Below, in pieces: positions 3,693 to 55,578 of a stretch of DNA of 64,000 nt. The notes beneath the pieces are model-generated. The model was given only the letters and a program-made list of their open reading frames with translations, had not been told where the DNA came from and ran no database searches. How positions within the stretch are numbered: the first letter of the stretch is position 1; every line of letters starts with the position of its first letter. The stretch spans positions 1,023-65,022 of the forward strand of contig CBDDBE010000003.1 of the NCBI GenBank assembly GCA_965225085.1, written 5' to 3'. This DNA is from an uncultured Candidatus Saccharibacteria bacterium (GTDB lineage Bacteria > Patescibacteriota > Saccharimonadia > Saccharimonadales > EFPC-124). Made by a program: the position numbers and the translations under genes.

Positions 3693-4862
3693 ATGAAGTT
3701 AAAAATAGGTGCATTTGTAGCGCTCATGGCGCTGGCGGGAATTGTATTCGCGCCGCTCGCGGTCCATGCCAGCGCGATTCGCCATGGTGATCGAGTGTCG
3801 GTTGCTCAGGATGAATCGGTTGATTCGACAGTATTTTTGGCCGGCTCAACCGTTACGGTGGCTGGCGTGGTCCACGGTGATGTCTTTTGTGTAGGGCAAA
3901 ATGTAGACATTACCGGCATGGTCGAAGGTGATGTCTTTTGTGCTGGCCAGACCATGCACATTAGCGGCACCGTCCTTGGCAGTGTTCGAGTGGCTGCTCA
4001 GACGCTGACAATTACAGGGCCTATTGGCCACGGGCTGAGTGTGGCTGCTCAGAGTGCGAGTATCGGCGGTGGCGCCACGGTAGACCAAGATGCGACTATT
4101 TTCGGAAGCATGATTGATCTGGGCGGCAAAGTCGGCCGGGACGCGGTGATTGGCGGCCAAAACGTTACTATTTCTGGCCGAGTTGCCCGCGATGTGACGG
4201 CTCAGGTGCAGGATCTAACGTTGGCGAACGGAAGCCAAATCGGTGGAGCTCTTGACTACACTAGCAGCAACCAGGCAACAGTCGAGCACGGCGCTACGGT
4301 GGTGGGCGCTACGCAACGGCACGATCCACCGGCCCGCAATGAAAGGCAGAGCAATACGGGCACGGCTTCGTTCTGGAACGCAGCCTATTGGTTTGGGGCG
4401 ACGCTGATGTTTGGGCTCGCTTTGCTGCTGGTCGCGCCGCGTACATTTGTATCGACCAAGAAAGTCTTTGCCACAAAAGGCGGCTGGGCTCTTCTGGCTG
4501 GACTTGGTATGCTCATTCTAACGCCTATTGTCGCGGTGATCTTGATGATGACGGTGATCGGCCTGCCACTTGCTATTGCGTTGTTGCTGGCTTGGATCGT
4601 GGCGCTCATAGGCAGCTTTAGCTACAGCTCATATGCTGTTGGGTCATGGATTGCTGAGCGGGCAAAATGGCAGCTGAAGTGGCCGCGCCTATCGGCGTTG
4701 GCACTCGGGGTGTTAACTGTATCGGTCCTGATGCTCATACCTTTTGTCGGCGGACTGTTTGGCTTCGTGGCGTTGATAGGGGGACTAGGCGCAGTCGGTA
4801 TGGCCTTTGTGTCACACGCTAAGAGCTCGGGCACTACTACCCATAAGCACGCTAAAGCGTAA
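3693..4862 (+). CDS. bactofilin-like (polymer-forming, beta-helical repeat) domain fused to a C-terminal polytopic membrane domain
   Basis: GGAGGT SD lies before MKLKIGAFVALMALAGIVFAPLAVHASA (signal/anchor). Repeated units GDVFCVGQNVDITGMVEGDVFCAGQTMHISGTVLGSVRV.... Four or more hydrophobic helices at the C-terminus. Confidence 0.6.
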   Translation: MKLKIGAFVALMALAGIVFAPLAVHASAIRHGDRVSVAQDESVDSTVFLAGSTVTVAGVVHGDVFCVGQNVDITGMVEGDVFCAGQTMHISGTVLGSVRVAAQTLTITGPIGHGLSVAAQSASIGGGATVDQDATIFGSMIDLGGKVGRDAVIGGQNVTISGRVARDVTAQVQDLTLANGSQIGGALDYTSSNQATVEHGATVVGATQRHDPPARNERQSNTGTASFWNAAYWFGATLMFGLALLLVAPRTFVSTKKVFATKGGWALLAGLGMLILTPIVAVILMMTVIGLPLAIALLLAWIVALIGSFSYSSYAVGSWIAERAKWQLKWPRLSALALGVLTVSVLMLIPFVGGLFGFVALIGGLGAVGMAFVSHAKSSGTTTHKHAKA

Positions 4863-4880
4863 ACAACTCAAATAGACTTT

Positions 4881-4914
4881 TAAATTCACCCGCAGCTACG
4901 AGCGGGTGAATTTA
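4881..4914. terminator. bidirectional stem-loop between convergent genes
   Basis: TAAATTCACCCGC (4881-4893) / GCGGGTGAATTTA (4902-4914): perfect 13 bp stem with an 8-nt loop. Confidence 0.6.
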
Positions 4915-4935
4915 ATGACGCTGAAGCTTGGGTCA

Positions 4936-6600
4936 CTAGAAATGTTCGCGCACGTGGCCGAAGCTGTAACCCCAGTCAGCGTTGGCTTTTTTGTGAGGGT
5001 TGAAGATATGGTCTGGGTCCATGATGTCTTTAGCCTGGCGGAAATAGCCGAGGACGGTTGGGCCGTACATTTGCTCCAGCCAAGGGCCACGCACCAGGCC
5101 GTCGTTGTGCTCACCGCTTAAGCTACCTTTGTACTTGAGGATTAGCGTGTTGACTTCTTTCATCGCGGGTTCGAGCTTGGCGCGGTCGCTCGGGTCTTCG
5201 AGCCTCATGAGGGGGATGATGTGAAAATTGCCATCGCCCATATGCCCGGCGACTGTCGCAAAGAGTTTGTATTTGCGAATGATCTGCTGCAGTTGGGGTA
5301 GGAACTCCGTGAGGTGCGGCGGATTGACGACCAGGTCGTCGATGAACGGCGCGGTGTGTTTGTCTTTTACCTTTTCGCGCAGTAGTTTAAAACTTTGGCG
5401 GCGCATCAGCCAGAATTTTTCGCTGCGTCCCTCAGTCGGCGTTTCCTCGAAGCCATTGATCTCGTAGCGAGCACGGTGTTGGCCTAGTTCTCGATGGAGC
5501 GCACGGATTTTTGTACGCACTTCGTCTTCGGTGTCGCCGTTGAATTCAATCATCAGAATCAGCTTTGGGATACCGCGCAGTAGCAGAAGCCCATCGGGGA
5601 TGAGGTTGAGCAGTAGCATTATGAAACGCGCCGGGCCAAGCATCTTCAGGAACGACGGCATAAAGCGAATCGAGAGCCACAGCGTCTGGTCGTCGAAGCT
5701 TTCGAATGTCGCCGGCTTGCTTTCGAGCACCTTTGGGATGAGCTCACCCAGGTCATCCATACCACGAAGGAACAGGACGAGCAGCCCGGAATGCTTGCGG
5801 TGCGGCACTAGTTTGAAGGTAATGTCGGTGGTGAAACCCAAGGTTCCTTGTGCGCCAACGATCAGATTGCACAAATTGAATATGCCTGTTTCGCGGTCCC
5901 ATACATCCCACAGGTTGTAGCCGGTGGAGTTTTTGCTGACGTGAGGTTTGGCGGCTTTTATCTCGTCGTAGTGGGTGTCGACTAGCTGGAATATTTCGCG
6001 GTAGACCTTGCCCTCAAAGTCATTTTGGGTCATTTTCTTATCAAGGTCGGCTTTCTGGAGCGGTTTGACGATGCGCTCTATACCATCGGCAAACACAACT
6101 TTTAGCTCACTCACGAAATTTTCGGTTTTGCCAAACTCGAGTGACTTTTCGCCACCAGAGTTGTTGTTGACCATGCCGCCGATGGTACACAGGTCGCGGC
6201 TGGCTGGATAGCTGGGCATCAGCGCATCGTGTTTGAGCGTCTCGGCCTCGAAGTCACGGTAGAATACGCCGGGTTGAGCATGGCCGGTTGTGGCATCAAC
6301 ATTTTCGATGGCGGTAAAGTATTTGTTGAAGTCGACAATGATTGAGTCGTTTATAGCCCCACCGCTCATGTCTGTCCCGGCAGAGCGCGCCGTGAGCGAC
6401 AGGTCGGGATGTGTTTTCTTTTGTTCGGCTACGAGGCTGACCAGCTTTTGGACATCGGCGCTGTCCTTTGGCATGGCAACCAGGCGTGGTTTGATTTCGA
6501 ATAGTGAGGCGTCATGGCTATATAGCTCCAGCGTTTTGTCGCTGGTATCTACGTCACCGCTAAAGCCTTTCGATTTGAGGGCGTCAATAATGTCTTCCAT
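4936..6600 (-). CDS. FAD-binding oxidoreductase (GlcD / D-lactate dehydrogenase family)
   Basis: 554 aa. N-terminal FAD_binding_4-like region (ARSAGTDMSGGAINDSIIVDF, CTIGGMVNNNSGG) and a C-terminal FAD-oxidase domain (GSLSGEHNDG). Confidence 0.85.
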   Translation of the reverse strand: MEDIIDALKSKGFSGDVDTSDKTLELYSHDASLFEIKPRLVAMPKDSADVQKLVSLVAEQKKTHPDLSLTARSAGTDMSGGAINDSIIVDFNKYFTAIENVDATTGHAQPGVFYRDFEAETLKHDALMPSYPASRDLCTIGGMVNNNSGGEKSLEFGKTENFVSELKVVFADGIERIVKPLQKADLDKKMTQNDFEGKVYREIFQLVDTHYDEIKAAKPHVSKNSTGYNLWDVWDRETGIFNLCNLIVGAQGTLGFTTDITFKLVPHRKHSGLLVLFLRGMDDLGELIPKVLESKPATFESFDDQTLWLSIRFMPSFLKMLGPARFIMLLLNLIPDGLLLLRGIPKLILMIEFNGDTEDEVRTKIRALHRELGQHRARYEINGFEETPTEGRSEKFWLMRRQSFKLLREKVKDKHTAPFIDDLVVNPPHLTEFLPQLQQIIRKYKLFATVAGHMGDGNFHIIPLMRLEDPSDRAKLEPAMKEVNTLILKYKGSLSGEHNDGLVRGPWLEQMYGPTVLGYFRQAKDIMDPDHIFNPHKKANADWGYSFGHVREHF

Positions 6601-6702
6601 ATACTCCTAAGCGTAACCTTGATAGCGAGCAAAAAGCAAGTTTATTACGGATCTACCATTGTGATAAAATAAATATGTCCTACGGTCAATTTTCGAAGGG
6701 GA

Positions 6703-6930
6703 ATGAACATGAAGTTCATTATCGCAACGCAGTCGGACCCAGCGGCCGTTAAGCCGAGGAAGTACTATCTCGAAAAGAAGGGCCGCGAGCATTATACCTG
6801 GCACCTTGGCGAACCGGGTCGTAGACGAGCAGAGCGGTTCAGGACTCGTGCCGAAGCCCAGACGGTCATCGACGGCGGCTTTAGGGATTGTGCGGGTATG
6901 GTCGCTGAAGTCCTCGAGATCGAGTCGTAG
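6703..6930 (+). CDS. hypothetical small protein (75 aa)
   Basis: GAAGGGGA SD; followed directly by a strong intrinsic terminator; no motif recognised. Confidence 0.5.
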   Translation: MNMKFIIATQSDPAAVKPRKYYLEKKGREHYTWHLGEPGRRRAERFRTRAEAQTVIDGGFRDCAGMVAEVLEIES

Positions 6931-7023: not shown

Positions 7024-8136
7024 CTATTTGGCGTGGAGCGTTTCGCCCGTCGCTCCAATGGGCTGGGCAAAGCGCTTCTTAGCGAACAGGCTGTGCAGCC
7101 ACGCCAGGCCGATCAACGACGTGGTTATGCAGCCTATGACCAGGCTGGAGAGGTCGAACCACATCGCCCAGGGCAGCGTGCCGATAGCCCAGAACGTCCC
7201 ATGACCCAGGTATGGATATCTGAGGAACGCATTCGTTGCTACCAGATGCAGCGTCATCCCCCGGACAAAGAGCGCACCGATGCCCAGACCAAGCAGGAGT
7301 AGAATCAGCTTGATGCTACTCTGCACTCGGTCGATCATCGAGAGGCCGCCCATGACGCTGTCGACCGAGAAGGTCGCGTCCTGTACCTCGAGATAACAGA
7401 ACATTGCGAAGGCCAGCAAGCCGTTGAGGCCGGGGTCGCTCGGTGTTCCTCGCTGCTTGGTTGGCCGGTCAGACGTGCGGTCTTGCCGCGCGTTGAGCCA
7501 TCTGGTCAGCAGGCTGAGCGCAGTGTACAGCACGATACTGACCAACCCGGCTCCGATCACGGTGCGATACTGCTGATGCCATTTCAAACACAGCCCGATG
7601 ATCGCACCGCACGCTACTGCAAGAACGGACAAGTGCGGATGCGCACCGCCCAGTCGCTCGAACCAGCGCTCGACTGGCCCAATCCAGTAGATGGTAAGGT
7701 CCTTGCCCTCGGCGTCGGTTTCGTGGTCCTTCGCGAACAGGAACGTTGCGAAGATTTGCAGCAGATACACGCTACCAAAGACCATGACCGGCAAGTGGGC
7801 ATTTAGCAGCTGTTGGGTAAAGGCGTCGGGATGTTTGACGATGCTGGTCAGCGCGCTGCCTATGCTCTCGTGGTTGCCGATAGCAACAATCACGATCGGC
7901 ACGGCGCCCCTCACCCCAAAGACCGCTACCGCAATGCCCCACAACATGAAGCGCTTCTGCCACTTCTTGTTGAGTTTTGCGACGTAGGTGGCATTAACGC
8001 TGGCGTTGTCGAACGAAAGCGCCACCTCTAGTACTGCTAGCATAGCAACGACCATCGCGCTATGCGGCATGGCATAGGCCAAGTAGCCCAGGACGCAGAT
8101 CGCGGCAATACTGGGCCATCCGTAGTATCGCCACAT
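7024..8136 (-). CDS. DUF475 (TerC-related) integral membrane protein
   Basis: ORF 7024..8544 trimmed to MWRYYGWPSIAA. Shows LEVALSFDNASVNA and the WQKRFMLWGIAVAVFGVRGAVPIVIVA motif. Paralog of 24177..25211. Confidence 0.75.
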   Translation of the reverse strand: MWRYYGWPSIAAICVLGYLAYAMPHSAMVVAMLAVLEVALSFDNASVNATYVAKLNKKWQKRFMLWGIAVAVFGVRGAVPIVIVAIGNHESIGSALTSIVKHPDAFTQQLLNAHLPVMVFGSVYLLQIFATFLFAKDHETDAEGKDLTIYWIGPVERWFERLGGAHPHLSVLAVACGAIIGLCLKWHQQYRTVIGAGLVSIVLYTALSLLTRWLNARQDRTSDRPTKQRGTPSDPGLNGLLAFAMFCYLEVQDATFSVDSVMGGLSMIDRVQSSIKLILLLLGLGIGALFVRGMTLHLVATNAFLRYPYLGHGTFWAIGTLPWAMWFDLSSLVIGCITTSLIGLAWLHSLFAKKRFAQPIGATGETLHAK

Positions 8137-8325
8137 GGCGTTCACCCCTTTCGGATGTGATGTAAAAGAACGATCGTCGAGTCGGTTGACACGACGGAGC
8201 ATGGCAAATCCATGCAGGCTGTTATGATAACACCGTGCGGTCACCTTCGCAATTATCTGTACATAGCGACGTACTGTTCTGCCGCGTAGCTCGTGTATAA
8301 TAACTGCAAAAGGGTATATACAATT

Positions 8326-9534
8326 ATGGCAGACGGCGTACAGAAGAAGAGAGTTCTGATTTTGGGTGGAGGCTTCGGCGGTATCAAGACAGCCCTGGGG
8401 CTGAATGACGAAAGCGCGTATGATGTCACGCTGCTGTCGGACAAAACTGACTTCAAATATTATCCGGCTCTGTACCGCTCGGCGACTGGCATGAGTAGGA
8501 CGGCATCTATTATCCCGCTCGATCAGATCTTTCACGGCAAACACATTACGCTACTGCACGAGCATGCACTCAAACTAGATCGTGCGGCCAGCGTCGTCAC
8601 AACTGTATCGGGCAAAAGTATCCCTTATGACATCTTGGTCGTGGCGCTTGGCTCGGTCACGAATTATTTCGGCATCAATGGCCTGGCCGAATACAGTTAC
8701 GGTATCAAGACGATCGAAGAGGCTGAGACGCTCAAGAAACACCTGCACGAACTAATGCTCAACGAACACAAGCCCGACCTGAATTATGTCGTCGTCGGTG
8801 GTGGCCCGACGGGCATTGAACTGGTGGGGGCGTTGCCGCACTACCTGAAGTGGATTATGAAGCACCATGGTATCAAGAACCGACGCATCAACATCGAGCT
8901 GGTCGAAGCTTCGCCCAGGTTGCTTCCACGCATGCCCAAGGATTTGTCGGCTGCTGTGGAACGGCACCTGCGCAAAATGGGGGTCAAGCTGCATTTGGCG
9001 CAAAAGGTCGAGGCCGAAACTGCCGACGCGCTTATCATCAATGGCCGGCCGATCAAAAGCCATACCGTCATTTGGACCGCAGGCATGTCCAGCAACGTGT
9101 TTATTAGCGAGAATGGCTTTACGCTGGATCACGGCAAGGTAGTGGTGGATGAATTTCTGCGCGCCAAGAATGAGCAGGCCGAGAATATCTATGTGATTGG
9201 GGACAACGCCTTAACCGAATATAGCGGCATGGCCCAGACAGCCCTGCACGACGCCGCCTTCTTGGCTCGGAACTTAAGACGCCTCGCGAACGATGACGTG
9301 CCGCTGGCATACAAGCCTAAACGTCCCATATACGTGTACCCGGCCGGGGAGCGCTGGTCGGCTGTGTTATGGGGTCCAGTTCGGATCTACGGCTGGTTGG
9401 GCTGGGCGCTTCGCGAAGCAGCAGACTGGGTGGGCTACCACGACGTCGAACCCTGGTGGAAGGCGTCTGAGCTATTTATGGCCGAAGCCGAGACGGACGA
9501 GATGTGCCCAGTATGTGGAGCCAAAGAAGACTAA
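8326..9534 (+). CDS. ndh: type II NADH dehydrogenase-like FAD/NAD(P) oxidoreductase
   Basis: ORF trimmed to MADGVQKKRVLILGGGFGGI. Second dinucleotide fold VVVGGGPTGIELVG; also GDNA. Confidence 0.85.
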   Translation: MADGVQKKRVLILGGGFGGIKTALGLNDESAYDVTLLSDKTDFKYYPALYRSATGMSRTASIIPLDQIFHGKHITLLHEHALKLDRAASVVTTVSGKSIPYDILVVALGSVTNYFGINGLAEYSYGIKTIEEAETLKKHLHELMLNEHKPDLNYVVVGGGPTGIELVGALPHYLKWIMKHHGIKNRRINIELVEASPRLLPRMPKDLSAAVERHLRKMGVKLHLAQKVEAETADALIINGRPIKSHTVIWTAGMSSNVFISENGFTLDHGKVVVDEFLRAKNEQAENIYVIGDNALTEYSGMAQTALHDAAFLARNLRRLANDDVPLAYKPKRPIYVYPAGERWSAVLWGPVRIYGWLGWALREAADWVGYHDVEPWWKASELFMAEAETDEMCPVCGAKED

Positions 9535-37262: not shown

Positions 37263-37267
37263 TTGTG

Positions 37268-37552
37268 TTAGGGGGTGGTGGTCAGGGTGATGCTGGCGAC
37301 CCTGGAAGTGTGAACCTCGCTGCCACTCCTCCAGATGGTGAAACCGGCGCCACGCCTGACCCTCTCGCCGATCAGGGCTTGACCCACCGGGAACTTCGGC
37401 CCCTCGAGCGTCACGAGGCCAACCGGGCTGCGCCGTGGGCGGATCGTGTAGACAGATCCACTCTCGGTGCAGATGGTCGCCACGACCGTGGCGCCGGTTT
37501 CGCGGGGGTCGAAGCTCTCGACGGACGTAACCGTCACTGTTTCCATGAGCAT
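37268..37552 (-). CDS. hypothetical protein (94 aa), G+C-rich orphan
   Basis: Beta-rich. My hand count of 37281-37380 gives 64 G+C per 100 nt, against 52 for trxB 36301-36400. Confidence 0.45.
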   Translation of the reverse strand: MLMETVTVTSVESFDPRETGATVVATICTESGSVYTIRPRRSPVGLVTLEGPKFPVGQALIGERVRRGAGFTIWRSGSEVHTSRVASITLTTTP

Positions 37553-37645
37553 ACACTTCCTATTCGCGTGCTGCGGATGAAGAACTTCGATATTATATAC
37601 GTCTTATTGTGTTCTGTCAAGCATGAGGAGTACGTAGCGCGCAGA

Positions 37646-38335
37646 CTATTGTGTGCGTAGCTCACTAAATTTGTCTGGATTATCTGTAATAATGCCGTCA
37701 ATCCCCAGCCGTTTTAGCTGCTTGGCTTCCTCGAAGCTATTTACGGTGTAGGCATAGGTATAGAGGCCGCGGCGTTTCGCCAGCGATATGATGAACGGCG
37801 TGAGCGCCGAGATGTGGTAGAAGCCGACAGCACTGAGCTTGACGCTTCGGAGCCAGCGAAATCGTACTGGCCAGATTTGTAGGAGGCTGTAAGGAATTTT
37901 CTTGTCGAGTTTGTAGGCTGAGCGTAGTACCGCCGGCGAAAACGATGACATCAGGAAGTGGTCGTAGGGGTAGCCCTTTTTGACATAGGCACGAATGAGT
38001 TCGACAACCTGCGGGACGCAGTCGGGGCTTTTGATCTCAATGTTAATCTTGGCCTTCAGGCCGATAAATTCTATGGCCTCCTCGAGTGTTGGGATTGTCC
38101 CGCCGCGCTTCATTTCGAGCGACTGGAGCTCGGCAACGGGCGCTTTGTGGACTGCTAGCCGTTTGCTAGCAACGCGTCGTGTGGTGCGGTCGTGTACTAG
38201 GACAATATGTCCGTCCTGCGTTCGACGAACGTCAAATTCGACAAAATCAACGCCTACGGCGAGCCCAGCTGCGATAGCTGCCAGTGTGTTTTCGGGCGCC
38301 AGCCCAGCCGCGCCTCGATGTCCCATGATGAGCAT
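37646..38335 (-). CDS. glycerophosphodiester phosphodiesterase
   Basis: MGHRGAAGLAPENT, VEFDV, GIDGIITD. Confidence 0.85.
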   Translation of the reverse strand: MLIMGHRGAAGLAPENTLAAIAAGLAVGVDFVEFDVRRTQDGHIVLVHDRTTRRVASKRLAVHKAPVAELQSLEMKRGGTIPTLEEAIEFIGLKAKINIEIKSPDCVPQVVELIRAYVKKGYPYDHFLMSSFSPAVLRSAYKLDKKIPYSLLQIWPVRFRWLRSVKLSAVGFYHISALTPFIISLAKRRGLYTYAYTVNSFEEAKQLKRLGIDGIITDNPDKFSELRTQ

Positions 38336-47122: not shown

Positions 47123-48355
47123 ATGGCAAATCTACTTCGTGATTTATTGGATGCAAAGGAGCCGCTGTTTAGCCTGAGCCTCAAGCAGTTGGAGGGCGCG
47201 TCGGGGCGTCATGGCATTGATGCCAAGCTCATTGGCGACATCATCGAGAAAACACACAAGGCTACCAGCGAGCTCGGCCTCGACCACGGCGATACAACCG
47301 GACGCGAGCTTTATCATGCGCTGCTGGCCAAGATAAAAGAGCATGACGAGCACCTGGCGCGAGCGATTGGCGGGCACGACGCCGAGGACGTGCAGAAGCT
47401 GCTGCCCCTCATCAAGGCCGCGGTCGAGAAAGCGGATGTACCTAAAAGCTGCTGGGTGCTGAAGAAAAGCGTTGCTCGTGAGATGCTTCGTCAAACGCCT
47501 CCGCCCACGGTCATGAAGCTGCTCGGGTATCGCTCGATCGACTCTATGCTCAAGCACGAGAACCTAGCAGAAGTGTACGGCGCACTGCGTTTTGCCGAAA
47601 GCCCCGAATGGCTCAACGCCTTCAACGAGCAGTACAAGAGCCTGAAGCCGAGTGATTTTGAGACGCGCGAGATCGAATTTGTAGTGATGCCCCGCGAGCG
47701 ATGGGGTGACATTGCCGAGCATTTTGTGGCCAAAAAGCGTCACAACATCACGCATCTGAAGGAACTGGGCGTGGTGATTATGCTCCCTGTTAAGCTGGCG
47801 AAGCTGCCTGGCATTACGATTACCGACATGCCGCTGATGTTTCACTACATCAACGAGATACGTCTGTACAGCGCATACTTCAAGTTGCAGCAGGTGAAGA
47901 AGGATTTTGGAACGATCTTTGTCGACACGCTGATTGCCGACCCAGGCAAGGCAGCGGTCATGGCGGGTAGCCATGTGCATTGGCGGGTTATACAGCGATA
48001 TTTTGGCAAGCTCGAGAACGAATATCATCCGGAAATTTTCGAGCCCCATGTGCAGCCAGAGGATCTGCATTGGCGCAAGGCTGAGGAGGCGCTGTACCTT
48101 ATTGACCCGGAGCTTGGATTTTGGCGAGATATGGACTACGTGGCGCGGTACGAGGATGGCCGGCCAATCGCCTTTAACCTCATGGATGTGTCGGTGGGGT
48201 ATTGCACCGGTGCGCCATACGAGAAGCGAGTGATTTATCATTTCCGTGAGAGCTTGTGGAACGAGATCTTCATACGGTATATGGGGCAGAAAACGCTGGA
48301 GCAGCAAGTGTTGCAGCAGCTCGATAATGACATGATAGCGCCCGAAAAGTTGTGA
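47123..48355 (+). CDS. hypothetical protein (410 aa), conserved-looking, function unknown
   Basis: Long ORF with natural composition. The antisense ORF 47564..48394 looks spurious. No motif recognised. Confidence 0.7.
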   Translation: MANLLRDLLDAKEPLFSLSLKQLEGASGRHGIDAKLIGDIIEKTHKATSELGLDHGDTTGRELYHALLAKIKEHDEHLARAIGGHDAEDVQKLLPLIKAAVEKADVPKSCWVLKKSVAREMLRQTPPPTVMKLLGYRSIDSMLKHENLAEVYGALRFAESPEWLNAFNEQYKSLKPSDFETREIEFVVMPRERWGDIAEHFVAKKRHNITHLKELGVVIMLPVKLAKLPGITITDMPLMFHYINEIRLYSAYFKLQQVKKDFGTIFVDTLIADPGKAAVMAGSHVHWRVIQRYFGKLENEYHPEIFEPHVQPEDLHWRKAEEALYLIDPELGFWRDMDYVARYEDGRPIAFNLMDVSVGYCTGAPYEKRVIYHFRESLWNEIFIRYMGQKTLEQQVLQQLDNDMIAPEKL

Positions 48356-48399
48356 AGTGTGGGCCGCCCGAGGTTTTAGCCCCGGGCGCCCCATACCAC

Positions 48400-49323
48400 T
48401 TAATCGAGGGTCACGCCAGTCTTGCGCAGCTCAGCCTGCAGTACTTCGACCTGGCGGCGCTTTCCAGCGATCAGCAAGTCGAGTTCGCGCTCCAAAGCGT
48501 CGATGTGCTGCTGCCAGCCGATGACGCGCGAAAGCGGCCGCGCAGCGATAGCGTCCATCTGCGCGTAGCAATGCCGGATGTAGCTGGCGAAGTGCTTCTG
48601 GGCCGTGACAAATGCGTCACGCGTGCGCTGCGCAGGAGCCGCCGGAACTTCCAGGTAGTTCACGGCTATTGCGTTGTGCAGCCACGCCCCGAAGCCATCC
48701 GGCGGACAGACATCTGCCGCGCGCATGATCGCACCCCAGACGGTCGCCGGCTGCGGGTTGGGGATACCCATCTGGCTACCCCGCGTGGTCTGGGCGCCGT
48801 AAGTCGAGGCCCAGATCACACCGGTCTGAAAGAGCCGGGATGGGGTGTTTAGTCCTCTGCGCCGCATGAACGTATTGACTGCGTCGGCAGTCACCCATTC
48901 GGACGTCACGTTCAGGCCTGCGCCGGGGTTGTACACGCCGTGTGGTGCTTCCGAGCGAAAGGTGCTGGCGCAGTGATGGGCATCGTGCGTGTACAGCGCC
49001 AGGCCAAACGCTTGACGAACTGCAGCCGGCATCTTGCCCTCGTTGCCGTCGGCATAGGCGTCTGCAGCGCACAGCCCATGGAGCATAGTGCTGCGGAAGT
49101 GGTTGGCGTTGTGATACGCCGGCCGGAACCGAGCCACCGACTGGTCGGCGTAGCTAAACGTACGCGCCTGCAGGTCAGCAAACTCACGTGTGCTGATGGG
49201 GTCGAGCTCACGTCCATCTGGCCGAAACGCCTGGCAGTCAGCCCGCAGGCTATCCGGCAGCTGGTACCATGACAGCATTTCATGCTCGTTGATGTACGGG
49301 CGCCAAAGTCCGAGGTCGGTCAT
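48400..49323 (-). CDS. possible HD-domain metal-dependent phosphohydrolase with C-terminal coiled coil
   Basis: Trimmed to MTDLGLWRPY. Shows an H...HD...D-like pattern (YHNANHF, YTHDAHH, MRAADV). Weak assignment. Confidence 0.5.
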   Translation of the reverse strand: MTDLGLWRPYINEHEMLSWYQLPDSLRADCQAFRPDGRELDPISTREFADLQARTFSYADQSVARFRPAYHNANHFRSTMLHGLCAADAYADGNEGKMPAAVRQAFGLALYTHDAHHCASTFRSEAPHGVYNPGAGLNVTSEWVTADAVNTFMRRRGLNTPSRLFQTGVIWASTYGAQTTRGSQMGIPNPQPATVWGAIMRAADVCPPDGFGAWLHNAIAVNYLEVPAAPAQRTRDAFVTAQKHFASYIRHCYAQMDAIAARPLSRVIGWQQHIDALERELDLLIAGKRRQVEVLQAELRKTGVTLD

Positions 49324-49413
49324 GGCTACGTCCCTTCGATGTGGTAAAGTACGGACAGGCAGAATTACCGGTCCAGGCGGTATTGTATCTACAGAGGTAC
49401 AAAGAATATATTT

Positions 49414-49434
49414 GTTGTGCATTATCTGCACAAC
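49414..49434. promoter_or_regulatory. palindrome in a divergent promoter region, candidate operator
   Basis: GTTGTGCA-ttatc-TGCACAAC, 20 nt upstream of the TrmB-like regulator ATG. Confidence 0.3.
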
Positions 49435-49454
49435 TAGCATAAAAGAGGACACAT

Positions 49455-50276
49455 ATGACCCAGGACAGCGACGTCATAGCAGAGTATTTCGCACGGCTAA
49501 AGTTAGAGCCGGAGATTGCCGATATCTATACAGCGCTCAATACGCATGGCCCCCAAAGCATTTCGGACCTGGCGCGTCATTCTGGCGTTGAGCGTACACG
49601 TATTTATCGCTTGCTTGACCAAATGGCCGACCTGCATTTATGTGAAACAGAGATCGACTACAAGCGAAGCGTTATTCGCCCTGCACCAATCGAAAACGTG
49701 CAGCTGCTGATAGCCCGCCGCGAGCAAGAGCTGCGCGATCTGCAGGCCGAGTTTGGGCAGATGCAAAAGGCGCTCGAGCACCACAAGGCCTCGCTTGCGC
49801 CAGCTACTAGGGTGCAGTTTTATAAGGGCATGGCCGGGCTGAAACAAATGTTCTGGAATCAAACGCGCACACAGACCGAGGGCGTCTCGATATTGTTCGA
49901 CAGCATGCAGACGCATACTCGGAGCGTATTTTTCGAGCGATGGGTTCGAAAGTGTAACGAGCGCAACCTGCACTTTAGGAGTGTGGTTGGCGATCATTTC
50001 GTAGATTCGATTCGCAGTTGGTACGATGCGCATCAAAACGAGCGACTGCAGCATTGGGAGGGGCGTTACGTGCCCAGTGACGTCTTTGACATAACCCATT
50101 CGATGGTTGTCTATAATGACGTTACGGCGTACTTTAACTGGGGTGAAGATGAGATATTTGGGATCGAGATCTACAACCAGCAGCTGGCGGATTCCCAGCG
50201 GCATTTCTTTGAGATGGTGTGGGGGCAAGGTCAGGAACTGACGAGCGAGCAGACACGGGCCAACGTCGTTCAGTAA
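49455..50276 (+). CDS. TrmB-family transcriptional regulator
   Basis: N-terminal wHTH ISDLARHSGVERTRIYRLLDQM, a coiled-coil linker and a C-terminal effector-type domain. Confidence 0.7.
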   Translation: MTQDSDVIAEYFARLKLEPEIADIYTALNTHGPQSISDLARHSGVERTRIYRLLDQMADLHLCETEIDYKRSVIRPAPIENVQLLIARREQELRDLQAEFGQMQKALEHHKASLAPATRVQFYKGMAGLKQMFWNQTRTQTEGVSILFDSMQTHTRSVFFERWVRKCNERNLHFRSVVGDHFVDSIRSWYDAHQNERLQHWEGRYVPSDVFDITHSMVVYNDVTAYFNWGEDEIFGIEIYNQQLADSQRHFFEMVWGQGQELTSEQTRANVVQ

Positions 50277-50919: not shown

Positions 50920-50931
50920 ATCGGTGAGATA

Positions 50932-50960
50932 TTGACTTTATAGATTTTTATTGTTATAAT
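50932..50960 (+). promoter_or_regulatory. near-consensus sigma70 promoter with extended -10
   Basis: TTGACT (50932-50937) - 17 nt - TGT TATAAT (50952-50960), in an AT-rich patch directly after the upstream stop. Confidence 0.6.
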
Positions 50961-51135
50961 AATTAAATCTGACCACGTTTAGTCTGAAAAGGAGTTGGCG
51001 TGATGCAGACGACCGGCAAGAGGCTGGACAAGCGCTACCATACAGGGCGCTAACCCAACACCTCCTCCCGTGTTCCAATCGTAGTACTGCCCTGAATGAG
51101 CGCGGGAGATTCCCGACTCACTCAGGAGATACACC

Positions 51136-52032
51136 ATGAGCAACATCTTCGACAACACCCAGCGTGTGCGTACGAACTGCAAGGATGGTCAGGACCCCGA
51201 GGTCCTGGTGATCGACTGTTTCGACCAGCTGTGGGGTGCCTACCTCGATCGGCTACCGGCTGGTACCACCTACCGGCTGGTGCGATTTCTGCCCCAGGCA
51301 GATATCACGCCCGGGCTGCGGCTCATCGTCATCCAGGGCCGGTCGTACACCAGCGCACTGCACGGGGATGTCACCAACACGATGATGTTCCTGAAGCGAG
51401 CACGTGACAAGTACGGCTTCAAGGGCAAGATGGTCGTGGCCAGCAGCCTGCTCAGCACGGCTGACGCGCGGGATCTGAGCGTCGTGTTCGGTGATCAGGT
51501 CATGGCGATGAGCAAAGACCGGCTCTTCTCTCAGGAGGAGAAGGAGCTGCTGGCCGGAATTCTTCGGCACCGCACGCCCCGTGAGGTACTCGAAGAACTG
51601 GTCGAATCCTACGCCAACGCCACCAATCCTGGTGCTTCAGATGACTTTGAAGCCGCAGGATCGGTGCTGGAGTGGCTGGACTGCTTCGCCAAAATCGTGC
51701 GAGACGGCAGTCCGAGGGATGTATACGAACACCTGGTGATGCTCGAGCCCGAGCACGACAGCCGCTGCACCTGCTGGGATCTGGACGATCCGCAGGAGCG
51801 GTGGTGGCACGAGCACCACACGCTGCTCAACCGAGCCTACCTGGAGATCATCTTGGCGGCGCCGGACGAGCTGTTGTACTGGTTGGCCAGCGAGCTTCAC
51901 GCGGACCTCGCTTCGCCCGATCGGTACATCGATGGCGACGGACCCTTCGGGCGATTCGTCCGCAAGGACTGCGGCCGTCTGCTACAGGGTTTCCTGCGGC
52001 TGGACGGTCCGGAGTCGGGCTGGGTCGACTGA
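51136..52032 (+). CDS. hypothetical protein (298 aa), GC3-rich orphan
   Basis: AGGAGA SD 6 nt upstream. 32 of the first 40 codons end in G/C, against 26 of 40 for gatB. The N-terminal half is vaguely flavodoxin/receiver-like (VLVIDCFD, KMVVASS). No motif recognised. Confidence 0.65.
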   Translation: MSNIFDNTQRVRTNCKDGQDPEVLVIDCFDQLWGAYLDRLPAGTTYRLVRFLPQADITPGLRLIVIQGRSYTSALHGDVTNTMMFLKRARDKYGFKGKMVVASSLLSTADARDLSVVFGDQVMAMSKDRLFSQEEKELLAGILRHRTPREVLEELVESYANATNPGASDDFEAAGSVLEWLDCFAKIVRDGSPRDVYEHLVMLEPEHDSRCTCWDLDDPQERWWHEHHTLLNRAYLEIILAAPDELLYWLASELHADLASPDRYIDGDGPFGRFVRKDCGRLLQGFLRLDGPESGWVD

Positions 52033-52042
52033 CCCGGCCAAC

Positions 52043-52080
52043 GGCCCCACCCACTCTTCGGAGTGCGGTGGGGCCTTTTC
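52043..52080 (+). terminator. intrinsic terminator
   Basis: GGCCCCACCCACTC-ttcg-GAGTGCGGTGGGGCC followed by TTTTC. Confidence 0.75.
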
Positions 52081-52103
52081 TATCGGGGCAGATTGATTTT
52101 ATA

Positions 52104-52127
52104 TAAAAGCGGGCCCTGAGGCCCGCT
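52104..52127 (-). terminator. terminator of the convergent lipoprotein gene
   Basis: AGCGGGCC-ctga-GGCCCGCT, preceded on + by TAAAA (a U-tract on the - strand). Confidence 0.55.
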
Positions 52128-52134
52128 GCTCGTG

Positions 52135-52686
52135 CTATGGAGTCGTTCGATGTGCGGCTGCGAACTTCAGGAAGCCTGGCGTGCCAGCCACACAAGTGTT
52201 GAAATACTCATTGCCGCTCAGGCGTGTAGCCAGCGTGCCAAACGTGTTGTTGCTGACTGCTATCGACGTGCCGCCCAATGGGTCATTGAGAAACATCGGG
52301 CCAAGGTTAGCCGCATTTTGCGGGCGCGGCGGCGAGGCAATGCTTGCCGAAACACCCTTACACATGCCCACCGTAACGGTAACGCCTATGTAGCCGTTGC
52401 TATCCCAGGTATATGCTGACAGATCATTCTTGTTGGTGTGAATCGTAATCAAGCCATTGGTATCAGCCTGAAGTCGATCCGCCAGATCAGTGACGGCACG
52501 ATCACGGTGCTGTCCGTCGACAATATTTCGCTCCTGGCAGGCTGCCATCAAGCCGACGACCAATGCGACAAGGCACAGGCCTACGATTCGCCACCGCCAC
52601 CGCTGCAGTCCGCCGACAATACCACGCGGCCATCGTCGTATCTGCACGAATTCCACCTCTTCTCTGAGTAGACTGAAGCCTATCAT
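52135..52686 (-). CDS. putative secreted/lipoprotein (183 aa), start uncertain
   Basis: Arg-rich n-region, hydrophobic [17 protein letters not shown] with a Cys after the helix. The listed ATG lies only 22 nt from the uvrB start, so the true start may be further in. Confidence 0.5.
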
Positions 52687-52708: not shown

Positions 52709-54703
52709 ATGACCTGGGAATGTTACAATAAAGGGGTGAGCTCATTTGAATTACATAGTGAATACCAGCCGACGGGTGATCAGCCGCGTGCGATCGCCTC
52801 GCTTGTGGATGGGCTCAAAAAGGGCAAGCGCGAGCAGACGCTCTTGGGTGTAACAGGGTCGGGCAAAACATTCACCATGGCCAACATCATCCAGGCCCAA
52901 CAAGTGCCGACTCTGGTGCTGGTGCACAACAAAACCCTTGCCGCCCAGCTATACAGTGAGTTTAAGCAATTCTTTCCTGACGCTGAAGTGCACTACTTTG
53001 TGAGCTACTTCGACTACTATCAGCCTGAGGCTTACATTGCCAGTAGCGACACCTACATCGAAAAGGACAGCGATATCAACGAAGAGATCGACCGCTTGCG
53101 CCATGCCGCAACGGCGTCACTTTTGACTCGGCGCGATGTCATTATCGTGGCGAGCGTCAGCTGTATATACGGCATTGGTTCGGTTGAGGATTATGGCGCC
53201 ATGGCGATCCACCTGAAGAAGGGCGAGCTGCGCAAACAAGACAAGTTCATGCGGCACCTGTCCGACATCCAGTATCAGCGCAATGACATTGACTTTCACC
53301 GCGGCACCTTCCGGGTCCGCGGAGATGTGGTAGACGTGTTCCCGGCCGGCGGCGAGCTGGCGTATCGTGTTGAGTTTTTTGGTGACGAGATTGACCGTAT
53401 CACCCAGGTTAACCCGCTGACAGGCGAAATAACGCAGGAACTTGACACGGCAAGCATTTTTCCCGGTAGCCACTACGTAACGCCGCGCGAGAAAACTTTG
53501 ATGGCCATCGACAAGATTCGCGCCGAGGGCCAGGAGCGCACCAAATGGTTTGAGGCGAATGGCAAATTGCTGGAGGCGCAACGTCTGAATCAACGTTTGA
53601 AGTTCGACCTCGAAATGCTAGAGGAGACGGGTTTCGTGAAGGGCATCGAGAACTACAGCCGGTACCTGACCAACCGCGCCCCAGGCGAGCAGCCGGCGAC
53701 GCTACTCGACTATTTCCCAGATGATTTTTTGCTGTTTGTGGATGAGTCACACCAAAGCCTGCCGCAGGTGCGTGGCATGTACAATGGCGACCGTGCCCGC
53801 AAAGAGATTCTGGTCGAGTACGGCTTCCGTCTGCCCAGCGCGCTGGATAATCGCCCGCTGACCTTCACCGAATTCGAGCGTCATATCAACCAAACAATCT
53901 ACGTCAGCGCCACACCCGGCGAGTACGAGCTTAGCCATGGTGGCGAGCCCGTGCAGCAGATCATTCGGCCGACTGGATTGCTTGATCCGCCCATCGAAAT
54001 TCGCCCAATTGATGGCCAGATTGATGACCTCATTGCCGAAATACGCGAAACCATTGGCAAGGGCCAGCGCACGCTCGTCACAACCCTTACCAAGCGCATG
54101 GCTGAGGACCTGAGTGATTATCTGGGTGAGCTGCAGATCAAAACCGCCTACCTCCATTCTGACGTTGATACGCTCGAACGAAGCGACATCTTGCGTGATC
54201 TGCGCACCGGCATATACGACGTGCTGGTTGGGATTAACTTGCTTCGTGAAGGATTGGACTTGCCCGAGGTGAGCCTGGTAGCAATCCTGGACGCAGACAA
54301 AGAGGGCTTTTTGCGCAGCAGCCAAGCGCTTATCCAGACGGTAGGCCGTGCCGCCAGGCACATTGATGGGCATGTCATTATGTATGCTGACAACCTGACC
54401 GACAGTATGCGTCGCACCATTGAGGAGACCAATCGCCGTCGTACTATTCAGGAAGCCTACAATCGCGAGCACGGCATAACCGCGCGTGGCGTGGCCAAGA
54501 AAATCGACGAAGGTTTGCGTGCCATCATCCCGCAGGAAGCAAAGGACGCCAAGCGCGACCTCAAGAAGATTCCAAAAGACGAAATTCCAAGCGTCATTCG
54601 CGACCTCACCTCGCAAATGGATTTGGCAGCCGCCAACCTGCAGTTTGAGGAGGCGGCGGAGCTGCGTGATATAATTTCAGATTTGAAAGCAAAATTGTTA
54701 TGA
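52709..54703 (+). CDS. uvrB: excinuclease ABC subunit B
   Basis: Trimmed to [26 protein letters not shown]. Shows [15 protein letters not shown] and the C-terminal UVR motif FEEAAELRD. Confidence 0.95.
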
Positions 54704-55448: not shown

Positions 55449-55578
55449 GCTCGTTACCTTTCTTGGGGGAGCGAGGACGAGATTTATTTTAGCATGATGT
55501 GTACGTTTGTCAAAAGGGCAGTATTAGCAAAATATCAACCTCGGAGTGGTATACTGGCCTACATAAGGGGCTAATATT

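Follow-up and report, generated by a model that had tools for sequence, protein, structure and literature searches.

The stretch of DNA analysed here (the window) is 64,000 nucleotides (nt) of contig CBDDBE010000003.1, assembly GCA_965225085.1, from an uncultured Candidatus Saccharibacteria bacterium. Between an SLOG gene and uvrB, it holds an open reading frame of 298 amino acids (aa), ORF298 (51136..52032, + strand), which encodes a two-domain protein and has its own promoter, a leader with a short upstream open reading frame (uORF), and an intrinsic terminator. A preliminary description had called this unit an acquired or specially regulated cassette. We examine here the insertion, the protein family of ORF298, the same cassette at other sites, and the likely logic of the leader. 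Saccharibacteria and other bacteria of the candidate phyla radiation (CPR) have tiny genomes, and little is known about their gene regulation and gene gain. The ORF298 cassette is a testable example of both, being a single-gene insertion with synteny-defined boundaries and a conserved leader that has a uORF and covarying alternative pairings.

The insertion between SLOG and uvrB

The uvrB gene (52709–54703) matches Saccharimonadia/Saccharibacteria assemblies from soil and other sources at 72–78% identity, showing that the window comes from a Saccharibacteria (TM7) genome. The window proteins were compared by tblastn with 39 uvrB loci, and the order g42398, g43278, g44799, PfkB, p410, SLOG, uvrB, gatA, gatB is kept in about 16 Saccharimonadia genomes. 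The gene upstream of ORF298, which had been described as SLOG-like, encodes an SLOG cluster-4 protein (PF18306, E 5e-32), and it ends 12–55 nt before uvrB in four relatives (L005, L008, L009, and L013). None of the relatives examined has an ORF298 ortholog at the SLOG–uvrB junction. Thus, the suggestion that the gene was acquired is supported by its absence from every related uvrB locus examined and by the four loci in which SLOG abuts uvrB, and its composition agrees. Three other genes of the window likewise have no counterpart in the related loci, namely the convergent gene downstream of ORF298 in the same strain-specific gap (52135..52686, − strand; 183 aa, or 170 aa from a later start), a TrmB-like regulator (49455–50276), and a 307-aa gene (48400–49323, −). 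The four genes therefore amount to two strain-specific insertions that flank SLOG. The Logan assembly of run SRR9179560 (L001) has the same arrangement over 9.2 kilobases (kb), with both junctions at 100% identity, which argues against a chimera.

ORF298 has a G+C content of 0.620, and its G+C content at third codon positions (GC3), 0.79, is the highest among the 60 reading frames of at least 120 aa in the window (mean 0.627, standard deviation 0.056). It ranks second of 52 in a chi-square on synonymous codons, and the 1-kb stretch 51001–52000 has the largest tetranucleotide distance of all 1-kb segments (z 4.7). The hand counts of the preliminary description (32 of 40 codons ending in G or C in ORF298 vs. 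26 of 40 in gatB, and 63 vs. 55 G+C per 100 nt) are exact, and the sharp change in composition that it reported holds at the 64-kb scale.

The sigma-70-type promoter of ORF298 (50932..50960, +) lies in a patch with 30% G+C (50920–50999). It consists of the −35 sequence TTGACT (50932–50937), a 17-nt spacer, and the extended −10 sequence TGtTATAAT (50952–50960), with TG before TATAAT (50955–50960) and 11 of 12 consensus positions matched. The position and spacing given previously for this promoter were correct, but it is not the best match in the window, as had been claimed. A scan of both strands found three sites with at least 11 of 12 matches; the best is a 12/12 site at 37620–37592 (−; TTGACA, 17 nt, TATAAT), and another with 11 matches and the TG is at 55513–55486 (−). 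The ORF298 promoter is among the best of the window rather than the single best. The 12/12 site overlaps the ends of the reading frames 37265–37660 (+) and 37646–38335 (−). Between the end of the −10 sequence at 50960 and the ATG at 51136, the leader measures about 169 nt, in agreement with the earlier estimate of about 170 nt.

The intrinsic terminator of ORF298 (52043..52080, +) is a G+C-rich hairpin (52043–52075; −36 kcal/mol, z −4.7 vs. shuffled sequence) followed by UUUUCU. It faces the intrinsic terminator of the convergent gene (52098..52127, −), which has the sequence AGCGGGCC-UCAG-GGCCCGCU followed by UUUUAUAUAAAA, and the minus-strand hairpin (52127–52108) with its U-run has z −4.0. 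Both facing terminators are thus located as first described. The N-terminus of the convergent protein includes a hydrophobic segment, and the protein has a lipobox-like motif, LMAAC; its gene is host-like in composition (GC3 0.60), unlike ORF298. A word-index search of 5.8 billion proteins with this protein returned only itself, and it has no similarity to the products of the downstream genes of L094 and L007.

In relatives L003, L004, L006, and L011, the SLOG–uvrB gap is longer and holds one to three prepilin-like genes, at 7855–9967, 9305–9988, 9376–9960, and 8785–9992, respectively, whose products have an N-terminal QRGFTxIE and a hydrophobic helix. In L007, the gap holds a gene for a 150-aa membrane-anchored orphan (9448–9900, −) with GC3 0.89 in a 45% G+C genome; it has the position and orientation of the convergent gene of the window, just upstream of uvrB, and no sequence similarity to it. 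Given these varied contents, the junction is a recurrent variable site in Saccharimonadia. The second insertion of the window (48400–50276), between p410 and SLOG, contains the 307-aa gene and the TrmB-like helix-turn-helix regulator. The 307-aa gene has G+C 0.63, GC3 0.74, an HDAHH motif, and a weak match to a PHROG ‘phosphohydrolase’, and the region 48251–49500 is the second tetranucleotide outlier of the window (z 4.0). This neighbor was considered as a conserved partner gene and rejected, as it has no similarity to the 305-aa gene in L085.

The ORF298 protein family

ORF298, in which the preliminary description recognised no motif, gave no match at E ≤ 1 in Pfam, PHROGs, NCBIfam, or PADLOC. 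It had also been taken for an orphan, but when 1.84 billion representatives were searched exhaustively with HMMER, 34 proteins were found at E ≤ 0.001, including ORF298 itself, and 32 of the 33 distant relatives are credible, though none is annotated. P0009 (561 aa, with internal repeats) was set aside as probably spurious. Twelve members are full length (about 290–400 aa) and have 26–34% identity to ORF298, whereas the remaining 20 or so contain only the C-terminal ~125 residues; the highest identity of the credible matches, 42%, is over the C-terminal domain alone. Some of these C-domain-only members are stand-alone proteins of 127–185 aa, and others have different N-terminal extensions. The family clusters are singletons or pairs, on one to six contigs, and none has a name. 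Word-index protein searches queried with ORF298 or with the family profile returned only ORF298 itself and P0033. ORF298 thus belongs to a very rare, unnamed two-domain protein family. Two full-length members, P0016 and P0033, are found in tandem on one contig of Joint Genome Institute (JGI) sample 3300048101 (genes 4490–5413 and 5768–6718), between pentose-phosphate and ATP-synthase genes and with an upstream gap of about 330–350 nt each; the pair either arose by tandem duplication or consists of two adjacent cassettes.

AlphaFold with the family alignment gave a model with a mean predicted local distance difference test (pLDDT) score of 89.5, while the single-sequence model, at 46, was unusable. 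The model has a receiver-like (β/α)5 domain at residues ~1–145 (folded part ~20–145), with strands at 23–26, 46–49, 63–67, 98–102, and 122–125 and helices between them, and a helical domain at residues ~168–298. The PDB matches from Foldseek that align compactly are receiver domains, with template modeling (TM) scores of 0.62–0.69 on the target and probabilities of 0.96–1.0. The list also holds small GTPases and succinyl-CoA synthetase beta, and viral structures gave only receiver-like or GTPase-like matches. The impression of a receiver- or flavodoxin-like N-terminal half and a helical, His/Trp-rich C-terminal half, gained previously by eye, is thus supported by the model and the Foldseek matches. 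A PDB sequence search with the family profiles gave nothing credible.

Like CheY-like receivers, the (β/α)5 domain has an Asp after β1 (D27), a Ser after β4 (S103), and a Lys after β5 (K127). However, β3 ends in Q67-G68 (family consensus VVIQG), so Gln67 replaces the phospho-accepting Asp of REC domains, at a position assigned from modeled secondary structure without a residue-level structural alignment. Furthermore, there is no match to Pfam REC (PF00072) in ORF298 at E ≤ 1, none in the 33 members, and no profile similarity to CheY. With Gln67 at the phospho-acceptor place, the N-terminal domain is, according to the model, a CheY-like pseudo-receiver without the phospho-acceptor Asp. In KaiA and AmiR, a receiver-like domain without a phospho-acceptor also precedes a helical output domain, but the C-terminal domain of ORF298 has no sequence likeness to ANTAR or KaiA, and the top 50 Foldseek matches include neither fold. 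A receiver-like domain at the C-terminus of P0030 was also considered and has no statistical support (hhalign 0.6%).

The C-terminal domain carries the family signature CxC-x(9-16)-WxHxxHxxxNxAVWE. C211, C213, and H225 are invariant, and W223, H228, and N232 are nearly so. The CxC (C211-x-C213, 51766–51774, +) is in a loop before the helix that bears both His residues (H225, 51808–51810, +; H228, 51817–51819, +), and the conserved residues CxC...HxxH are a probable Cys2His2 metal site. As in the SWIM zinc finger (PF04434, CxCxnCxH), a hydrophobic stretch precedes the CxC, and metal-ligand residues follow on a helix. One of the 33 members, P0028, aligns with positions 1–24 of the SWIM profile at E 0.009, and its score of 15.9 bits falls short of the Pfam cut-off of 19.6 bits. 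Unlike SWIM, the second ligand pair is HxxH rather than CxH, and the model has a helix, not strands, before the CxC. Membership in the SWIM family was thus rejected on the signature, CxC-x(9-16)-WxHxxH, and the subthreshold score. The family defined here combines a pseudo-receiver with a CxC...WxHxxH helical domain. The helical domain is found also alone, fused to different N-terminal regions, and in one case on a large mobile element.

The cassette at other sites and its leader

DNA was available for four other full-length homologue cassettes (L082, L090, L092, and L094), five counting the window. The cassette recurs at unrelated sites in these few other uncultured genomes, with the same unusually G+C-rich coding sequence, and it is conserved as a whole, that is, the promoter, uORF, Shine-Dalgarno (SD) sequence, buried ribosome-binding site (RBS), covarying pairing, and terminator. 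An extended −10 sequence of the type TGnTAYAAT is found in the same place in all four, as in the window. In the window and L094, the −35 sequence TTGMYT is clear, at 17 nt; it is absent from L092 and approximate in L082 and L090 (ATTGCY with an 18–19-nt spacer, read by eye). The promoter/start-site motif TGTTATAATAATTAAATC (50952..50969, +), an 18-mer unique within the window, has 17 of its 18 bases kept in L082, the cassette of homologue P0004, with one A/T difference, giving the common form TGTTAWAATAATTAAATC. Its 15-nt core TAWAATAATTAAATC is found, among 87 loci, only in L001, the window's own locus, and L082–L084. At the other end, a strong hairpin directly 3′ of the stop codon is present in the homologous cassettes too (z −5.1 to −8.6). 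The cassettes tend to lie where two genes end, co-oriented with the upstream gene. The downstream gene is convergent in five of seven contexts (L082, L092, L094, the window, and the P0033 contig). The shared flanking genes were uninformative for the taxonomic placement of the other host contigs.

The GC3 of the family gene is the highest of its locus in all seven contexts with DNA, at 0.74–0.92 vs. 0.32–0.69 for the neighbors. The individual values are 0.79 in the window (neighbors mean 0.63), 0.80 in L082 (0.42–0.67), 0.74 in L085 (0.32–0.64, with housekeeping genes at 0.35–0.43), 0.80 in L087 (0.51), 0.92 in L090 (0.66–0.69 for the L35 and L20 genes), 0.78 in L092 (0.51–0.62), and 0.87 in L094 (0.48–0.64). 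The G+C content at first codon positions (GC1) of the family genes is also raised, to 0.61–0.67 vs. ~0.52–0.62 in the neighbors. One member is on mobile DNA. L088 (IMGVR_UViG_3300017963_000003), a predicted viral or mobile contig of IMG/VR with 192 kb and 60% G+C, encodes at 9878–10366 a C-domain-only homologue (hhalign 98.4%) that has lost the CxC and His residues; nearby genes include those for a transposase, an anti-restriction protein, and a large helicase (matched as a helicase fragment of phrog_62).

No homologue was found from a cultured Actinobacterium or from a named isolate plasmid or phage, and tblastn of isolate plasmids and phages with ORF298 and P0023 gave no credible match. Two scans of metagenome contigs for family patterns, and one of viral sequences for the N-domain pattern, found nothing. 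The shared SD/start pattern gave four chance matches in viral sequences, none of them family members.

The leader of the window contains a 17-codon uORF from 51000 (GTG) or 51003 (ATG) to the TAA at 51051–51053 (+), encoding (V)MQTTGKRLDKRYHTGR. With its SD sequence, AAGGAG (50989–50994, +), this feature spans 50989..51053. All five leaders have a uORF of 16–17 codons, with a strong SD sequence of the AAGGAG/GGAGG type 5–8 nt before the start. The uORF peptides are poorly conserved overall, and no recognised stalling motif is conserved in them. Those of L092 and L094 share MTYFxQxRP (MTYFDQTRP vs. MTYFKQSRP) with three synonymous codon differences, and His-Thr stands at, or no more than two residues from, the C-terminus in four of the five. 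In the same four leaders (the window, 51039–51043; L082; L090; L094), the pentamer CAUAC, which codes for His-Thr, lies 0–2 codons 5′ of the uORF stop. In the window and L090, it occupies the loop of the hairpin that forms around the uORF stop; in L082 and L094, it is unpaired within a larger loop there. CAUAC could be a peptide signal or an RNA signal. Family members without DNA also have upstream gaps, of at least 216 nt.

Downstream of the uORF, the main SD sequence, AGGAG (51124–51128, +), 7 nt before the ORF298 ATG, is included in a hairpin (51090..51128, +) whose outer stem pairs CCCUGA-UGAG with CUCA-UCAGG. According to RNAalifold, each of the five leaders has an apical hairpin, in which a compensatory change from C-G to U-A occurs; it is CGGGA-GAU-UCCCG (51103–51115, +) in the window and GGUGCGGGG-AUU-CCCCGCACC in L092. 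The long stem enclosing the apical hairpin pairs the main SD sequence and start codon. By calculation, 6.9 kcal/mol is needed to open the main RBS in the window and 11.5–19.7 kcal/mol in the four homologous leaders. In the minimum-energy fold, four of the five leaders have a paired SD sequence, that of the window in part. The exception is L090, where the start-codon region is paired and the SD sequence is unpaired with a probability of 0.67. The L082 leader folds much better than shuffled sequences (z −4.9).

Just 3′ of the uORF stop is a C/U-rich sequence, segment 1 (CUCCCGUGUUC, 51065..51075, +), complementary over 11 base pairs, including two G-U pairs, to segment 2 (GAGCGCGGGAG, 51098–51108, +) in the 5′ arm of the hairpin. 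The calculated energy of this duplex is −19.9 kcal/mol (shuffle p 0.0015). A C-rich segment complementary to the 5′ arm is found in all five leaders, 0–13 nt 3′ of the uORF stop, and the segment and the arm change in step: CUCCCGUGUUC/GAGCGCGGGAG, CUCUCCGCA/UGCGGGGAG, CCCCCACA/UGUGGGGG, CCCCGCA/UGCGGGG, and GCCCUCACA/UGUGAGGGC. With the arms defined objectively from alignment columns, the leaders' own pairings average −18.3 kcal/mol vs. −12.4 kcal/mol for cross pairings, and the true assignment is the best of the 120 permutations of the five leaders. Furthermore, the best upstream partner of the hairpin arm is in every leader the sequence just past the uORF stop, and in L094, one A of the arm that is mismatched inside the hairpin is paired in the alternative helix. 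In ribosome-free minimum-energy folds, the C-rich segment pairs with the uORF sequence. Since it can pair with either the uORF sequence or the hairpin arm, the leader has the four-segment layout of a translational attenuator. The conserved uORF and covarying RNA pairing, common to distant homologues, support the proposal that the gene is specially regulated. A search of the leader against Rfam gave only noise, even at E ≤ 10, so the leader would count as a new cis-regulatory element, which it probably is.

Origin, control, and comparison with known systems

On balance, we favor the interpretation that the unit between the SLOG gene and uvrB of this soil Saccharimonadia genome is a horizontally acquired, self-contained single-gene cassette, gated by its leader. 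The logic of the leader is most likely, by analogy, translational attenuation of the ermC/cat type. The near-consensus promoter with its extended −10 sequence would probably transcribe the cassette constitutively, and the uORF would be translated from its own strong SD sequence. As long as the downstream hairpin is intact, it would bury the main SD sequence and start codon, so that the leader gates translation of the main gene. A ribosome paused in the uORF would remove the uORF partner of the C-rich segment, and the freed segment could then invade the 5′ arm of the hairpin and open the RBS. We think it somewhat better than an even chance that translation of ORF298 depends on the uORF, while the direction of the switch, activation by stalling, is a more tentative proposal, a little short of even. 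What is the function of the protein? We infer that it may be a regulatory or adaptor protein, not an enzyme, made only under translation-related stress.

Several observations weigh against this interpretation. The locus has no integrase, transposase, target-site duplication, or terminal repeat flanking the insertion; no convincing direct or inverted repeats were found around it, and Rfam over the whole 64 kb gave nothing at the gathering score, that is, no tRNA, rRNA, riboswitch, or other known RNA. Since the nearest genomes compared have only 72–78% UvrB identity, they place loose bounds on when the insertion took place, and the composition statistics cover the 64-kb window rather than the whole genome. 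The likeness of the N-terminal domain to receivers is structural only, with Foldseek E-values of 0.01–0.2 and an hhalign probability of 0.6% against CheY. The leader of the window folds only weakly better than shuffled sequences (z −1.4), and the covariation rests on five sequences and a pairing that was noticed before it was tested. Finally, equilibrium folding shows no switching: a stalled-ribosome mask lowers the cost of opening the RBS by only 1–3 kcal/mol in four leaders and raises it in L092, an overall range of −3 to +3 kcal/mol with inconsistent sign.

Is ORF298 instead a native gene, inherited vertically and lost in the relatives, with a high GC3 that reflects expression-linked codon bias? 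The host does prefer codons ending in G or C (mean GC3 0.63), the bias of ORF298 runs in this direction, and a simple synonymous-choice likelihood leaves ORF298 outside the eight least host-like reading frames. However, the gene is missing from all related loci, with SLOG and uvrB abutting in several; no protein among the 1.84 billion representatives exceeds 34% full-length identity (42% for the C-terminal domain alone); and its tetranucleotide usage is also the extreme of the window. Furthermore, the homologues stand at GC3 0.74–0.92 among neighbors at 0.32–0.69, and even the member adjoining the genes for L35 and L20 exceeds them (0.66–0.69), so expression-linked bias does not explain the GC3 of the family. 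A native origin is thus largely refuted, and we consider it very improbable. Less probable still is a chimera in which assembly or binning joined foreign reads into a Saccharibacteria contig. The window does look like a metagenome-assembled genome, and the segment is compositionally distinct and short (~1.2 kb), but a single contig carries host genes to either side of it, the separate Logan assembly is identical, and the assemblies of four further family members also place them among housekeeping genes. Ordinary amelioration leaves the GC3 pattern unexplained, which suggests that either a hidden gene pool rich in G+C feeds these genomes or the transcript is under unusual selection. Such selection, for strong mRNA structure or for avoidance of A/U-specific ribonucleases, could keep GC3 high in the absence of recent transfer: members with 26–38% identity to ORF298 are all GC3-rich despite hosts of different composition, the promoter that travels with the gene is A+T-rich, and the GC3 of the gene loosely tracks that of the host. 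On the other hand, the raised GC1 fits long residence in a genome of ~60–65% G+C, the member on the mobile element sits in 60% G+C DNA among genes with GC3 0.80–0.83, and we know of no such mechanism documented for a whole gene family. Selection on the transcript is a possible source of the bias, though an unlikely one, and repeated recent acquisition from a G+C-rich pool yet to be sampled is the simplest explanation.

The leader might also work without attenuation, as a ligand riboswitch, as an operator for a binding protein (possibly the ORF298 product), or through a structure that a helicase or RNase opens, with the uORF incidental or a separate small gene. The equilibrium modeling without a uORF-dependent switch, the poor overall conservation of the leader peptides, and CAUAC, a potential binding site that four of the five leaders have in the hairpin loop at the uORF stop, are in line with this. 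We nevertheless regard it as improbable, given that Rfam gives no match even at a permissive threshold, that the presence, length, SD sequence, and position of the uORF are kept in all five leaders, that L092 and L094 share MTYFxQxRP through synonymous changes, and that the covarying segment adjoins the uORF stop in every leader. A particular version of the attenuation model is that the cassette provides inducible resistance or immunity to a ribosome-targeting compound from the actinobacterial host or neighbors, drug-stalled ribosomes switching it on. The layout parallels that of the erm, cat, and cmlA cassettes, which have a constitutive strong promoter, leader peptide, buried RBS, single gene, and terminator, and are horizontally mobile and G+C-rich. 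Saccharibacteria live on Actinobacteria, which also fits. However, the protein is unlike known resistance enzymes, ribosome-protection factors, and efflux components, its homologues were not found in any cultured organism, plasmid, or phage, and the peptides conserve no recognised stalling motif; this version is quite unlikely.

A wider and rather speculative extension, for which the chances are small, is that such units form a new class of promiscuous single-gene cassettes among Saccharibacteria-like uncultured genomes. They would come from a G+C-rich reservoir, either mobile elements or actinobacterial hosts, and would couple their own promoter and a new ribosome-sensing leader-peptide riboregulator to a new pseudo-receiver/zinc-domain protein acting in epibiont–host or anti-phage conflict. 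Reduced genomes such as those of Saccharibacteria are thought to be genetically isolated. If the proposal is true, the donor-like codon usage would record unusually frequent and recent transfer into them.

Phage ‘morons’ and genomic islets (the Hendrix/Juhala concept) are independent promoter–gene–terminator units between conserved genes, often with deviant composition. The ORF298 cassette is similarly self-contained, is located between genes that are adjacent in relatives, and has a distinct composition. Unlike phage morons, it is in a bacterial chromosome rather than a prophage, with no phage genes nearby, and it recurs with its promoter and leader at unrelated chromosomal sites, at 26–34% protein identity. 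It resembles a genomic islet in its absence from the syntenic position and its deviant composition within the window, and no mobility genes, tRNA target, or flanking direct repeats were found at the locus. Integron attC-like 3′ sites were considered and rejected, as the cassettes have their own promoters, occupy scattered single sites, and lack R′/R″ core sequences.

The ermC, cat86, and cmlA attenuators, like the ORF298 leader, have a short uORF with its own SD sequence, a main RBS buried in a hairpin, and mutually exclusive pairings that link the uORF region to this hairpin, and they too belong to single-gene units with their own promoter and terminator on horizontally moved DNA. However, the ORF298 cassette has no sequence or Rfam relationship to them and no known stalling motif in its uORF, its covarying competitor segment lies outside the uORF, 0–13 nt past the stop, and not within it as in theirs, and its protein is unrelated to any resistance family. 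Thus, the mobile single-gene unit and leader-peptide control are of known kinds, whereas the protein family is new and the leader element probably so.

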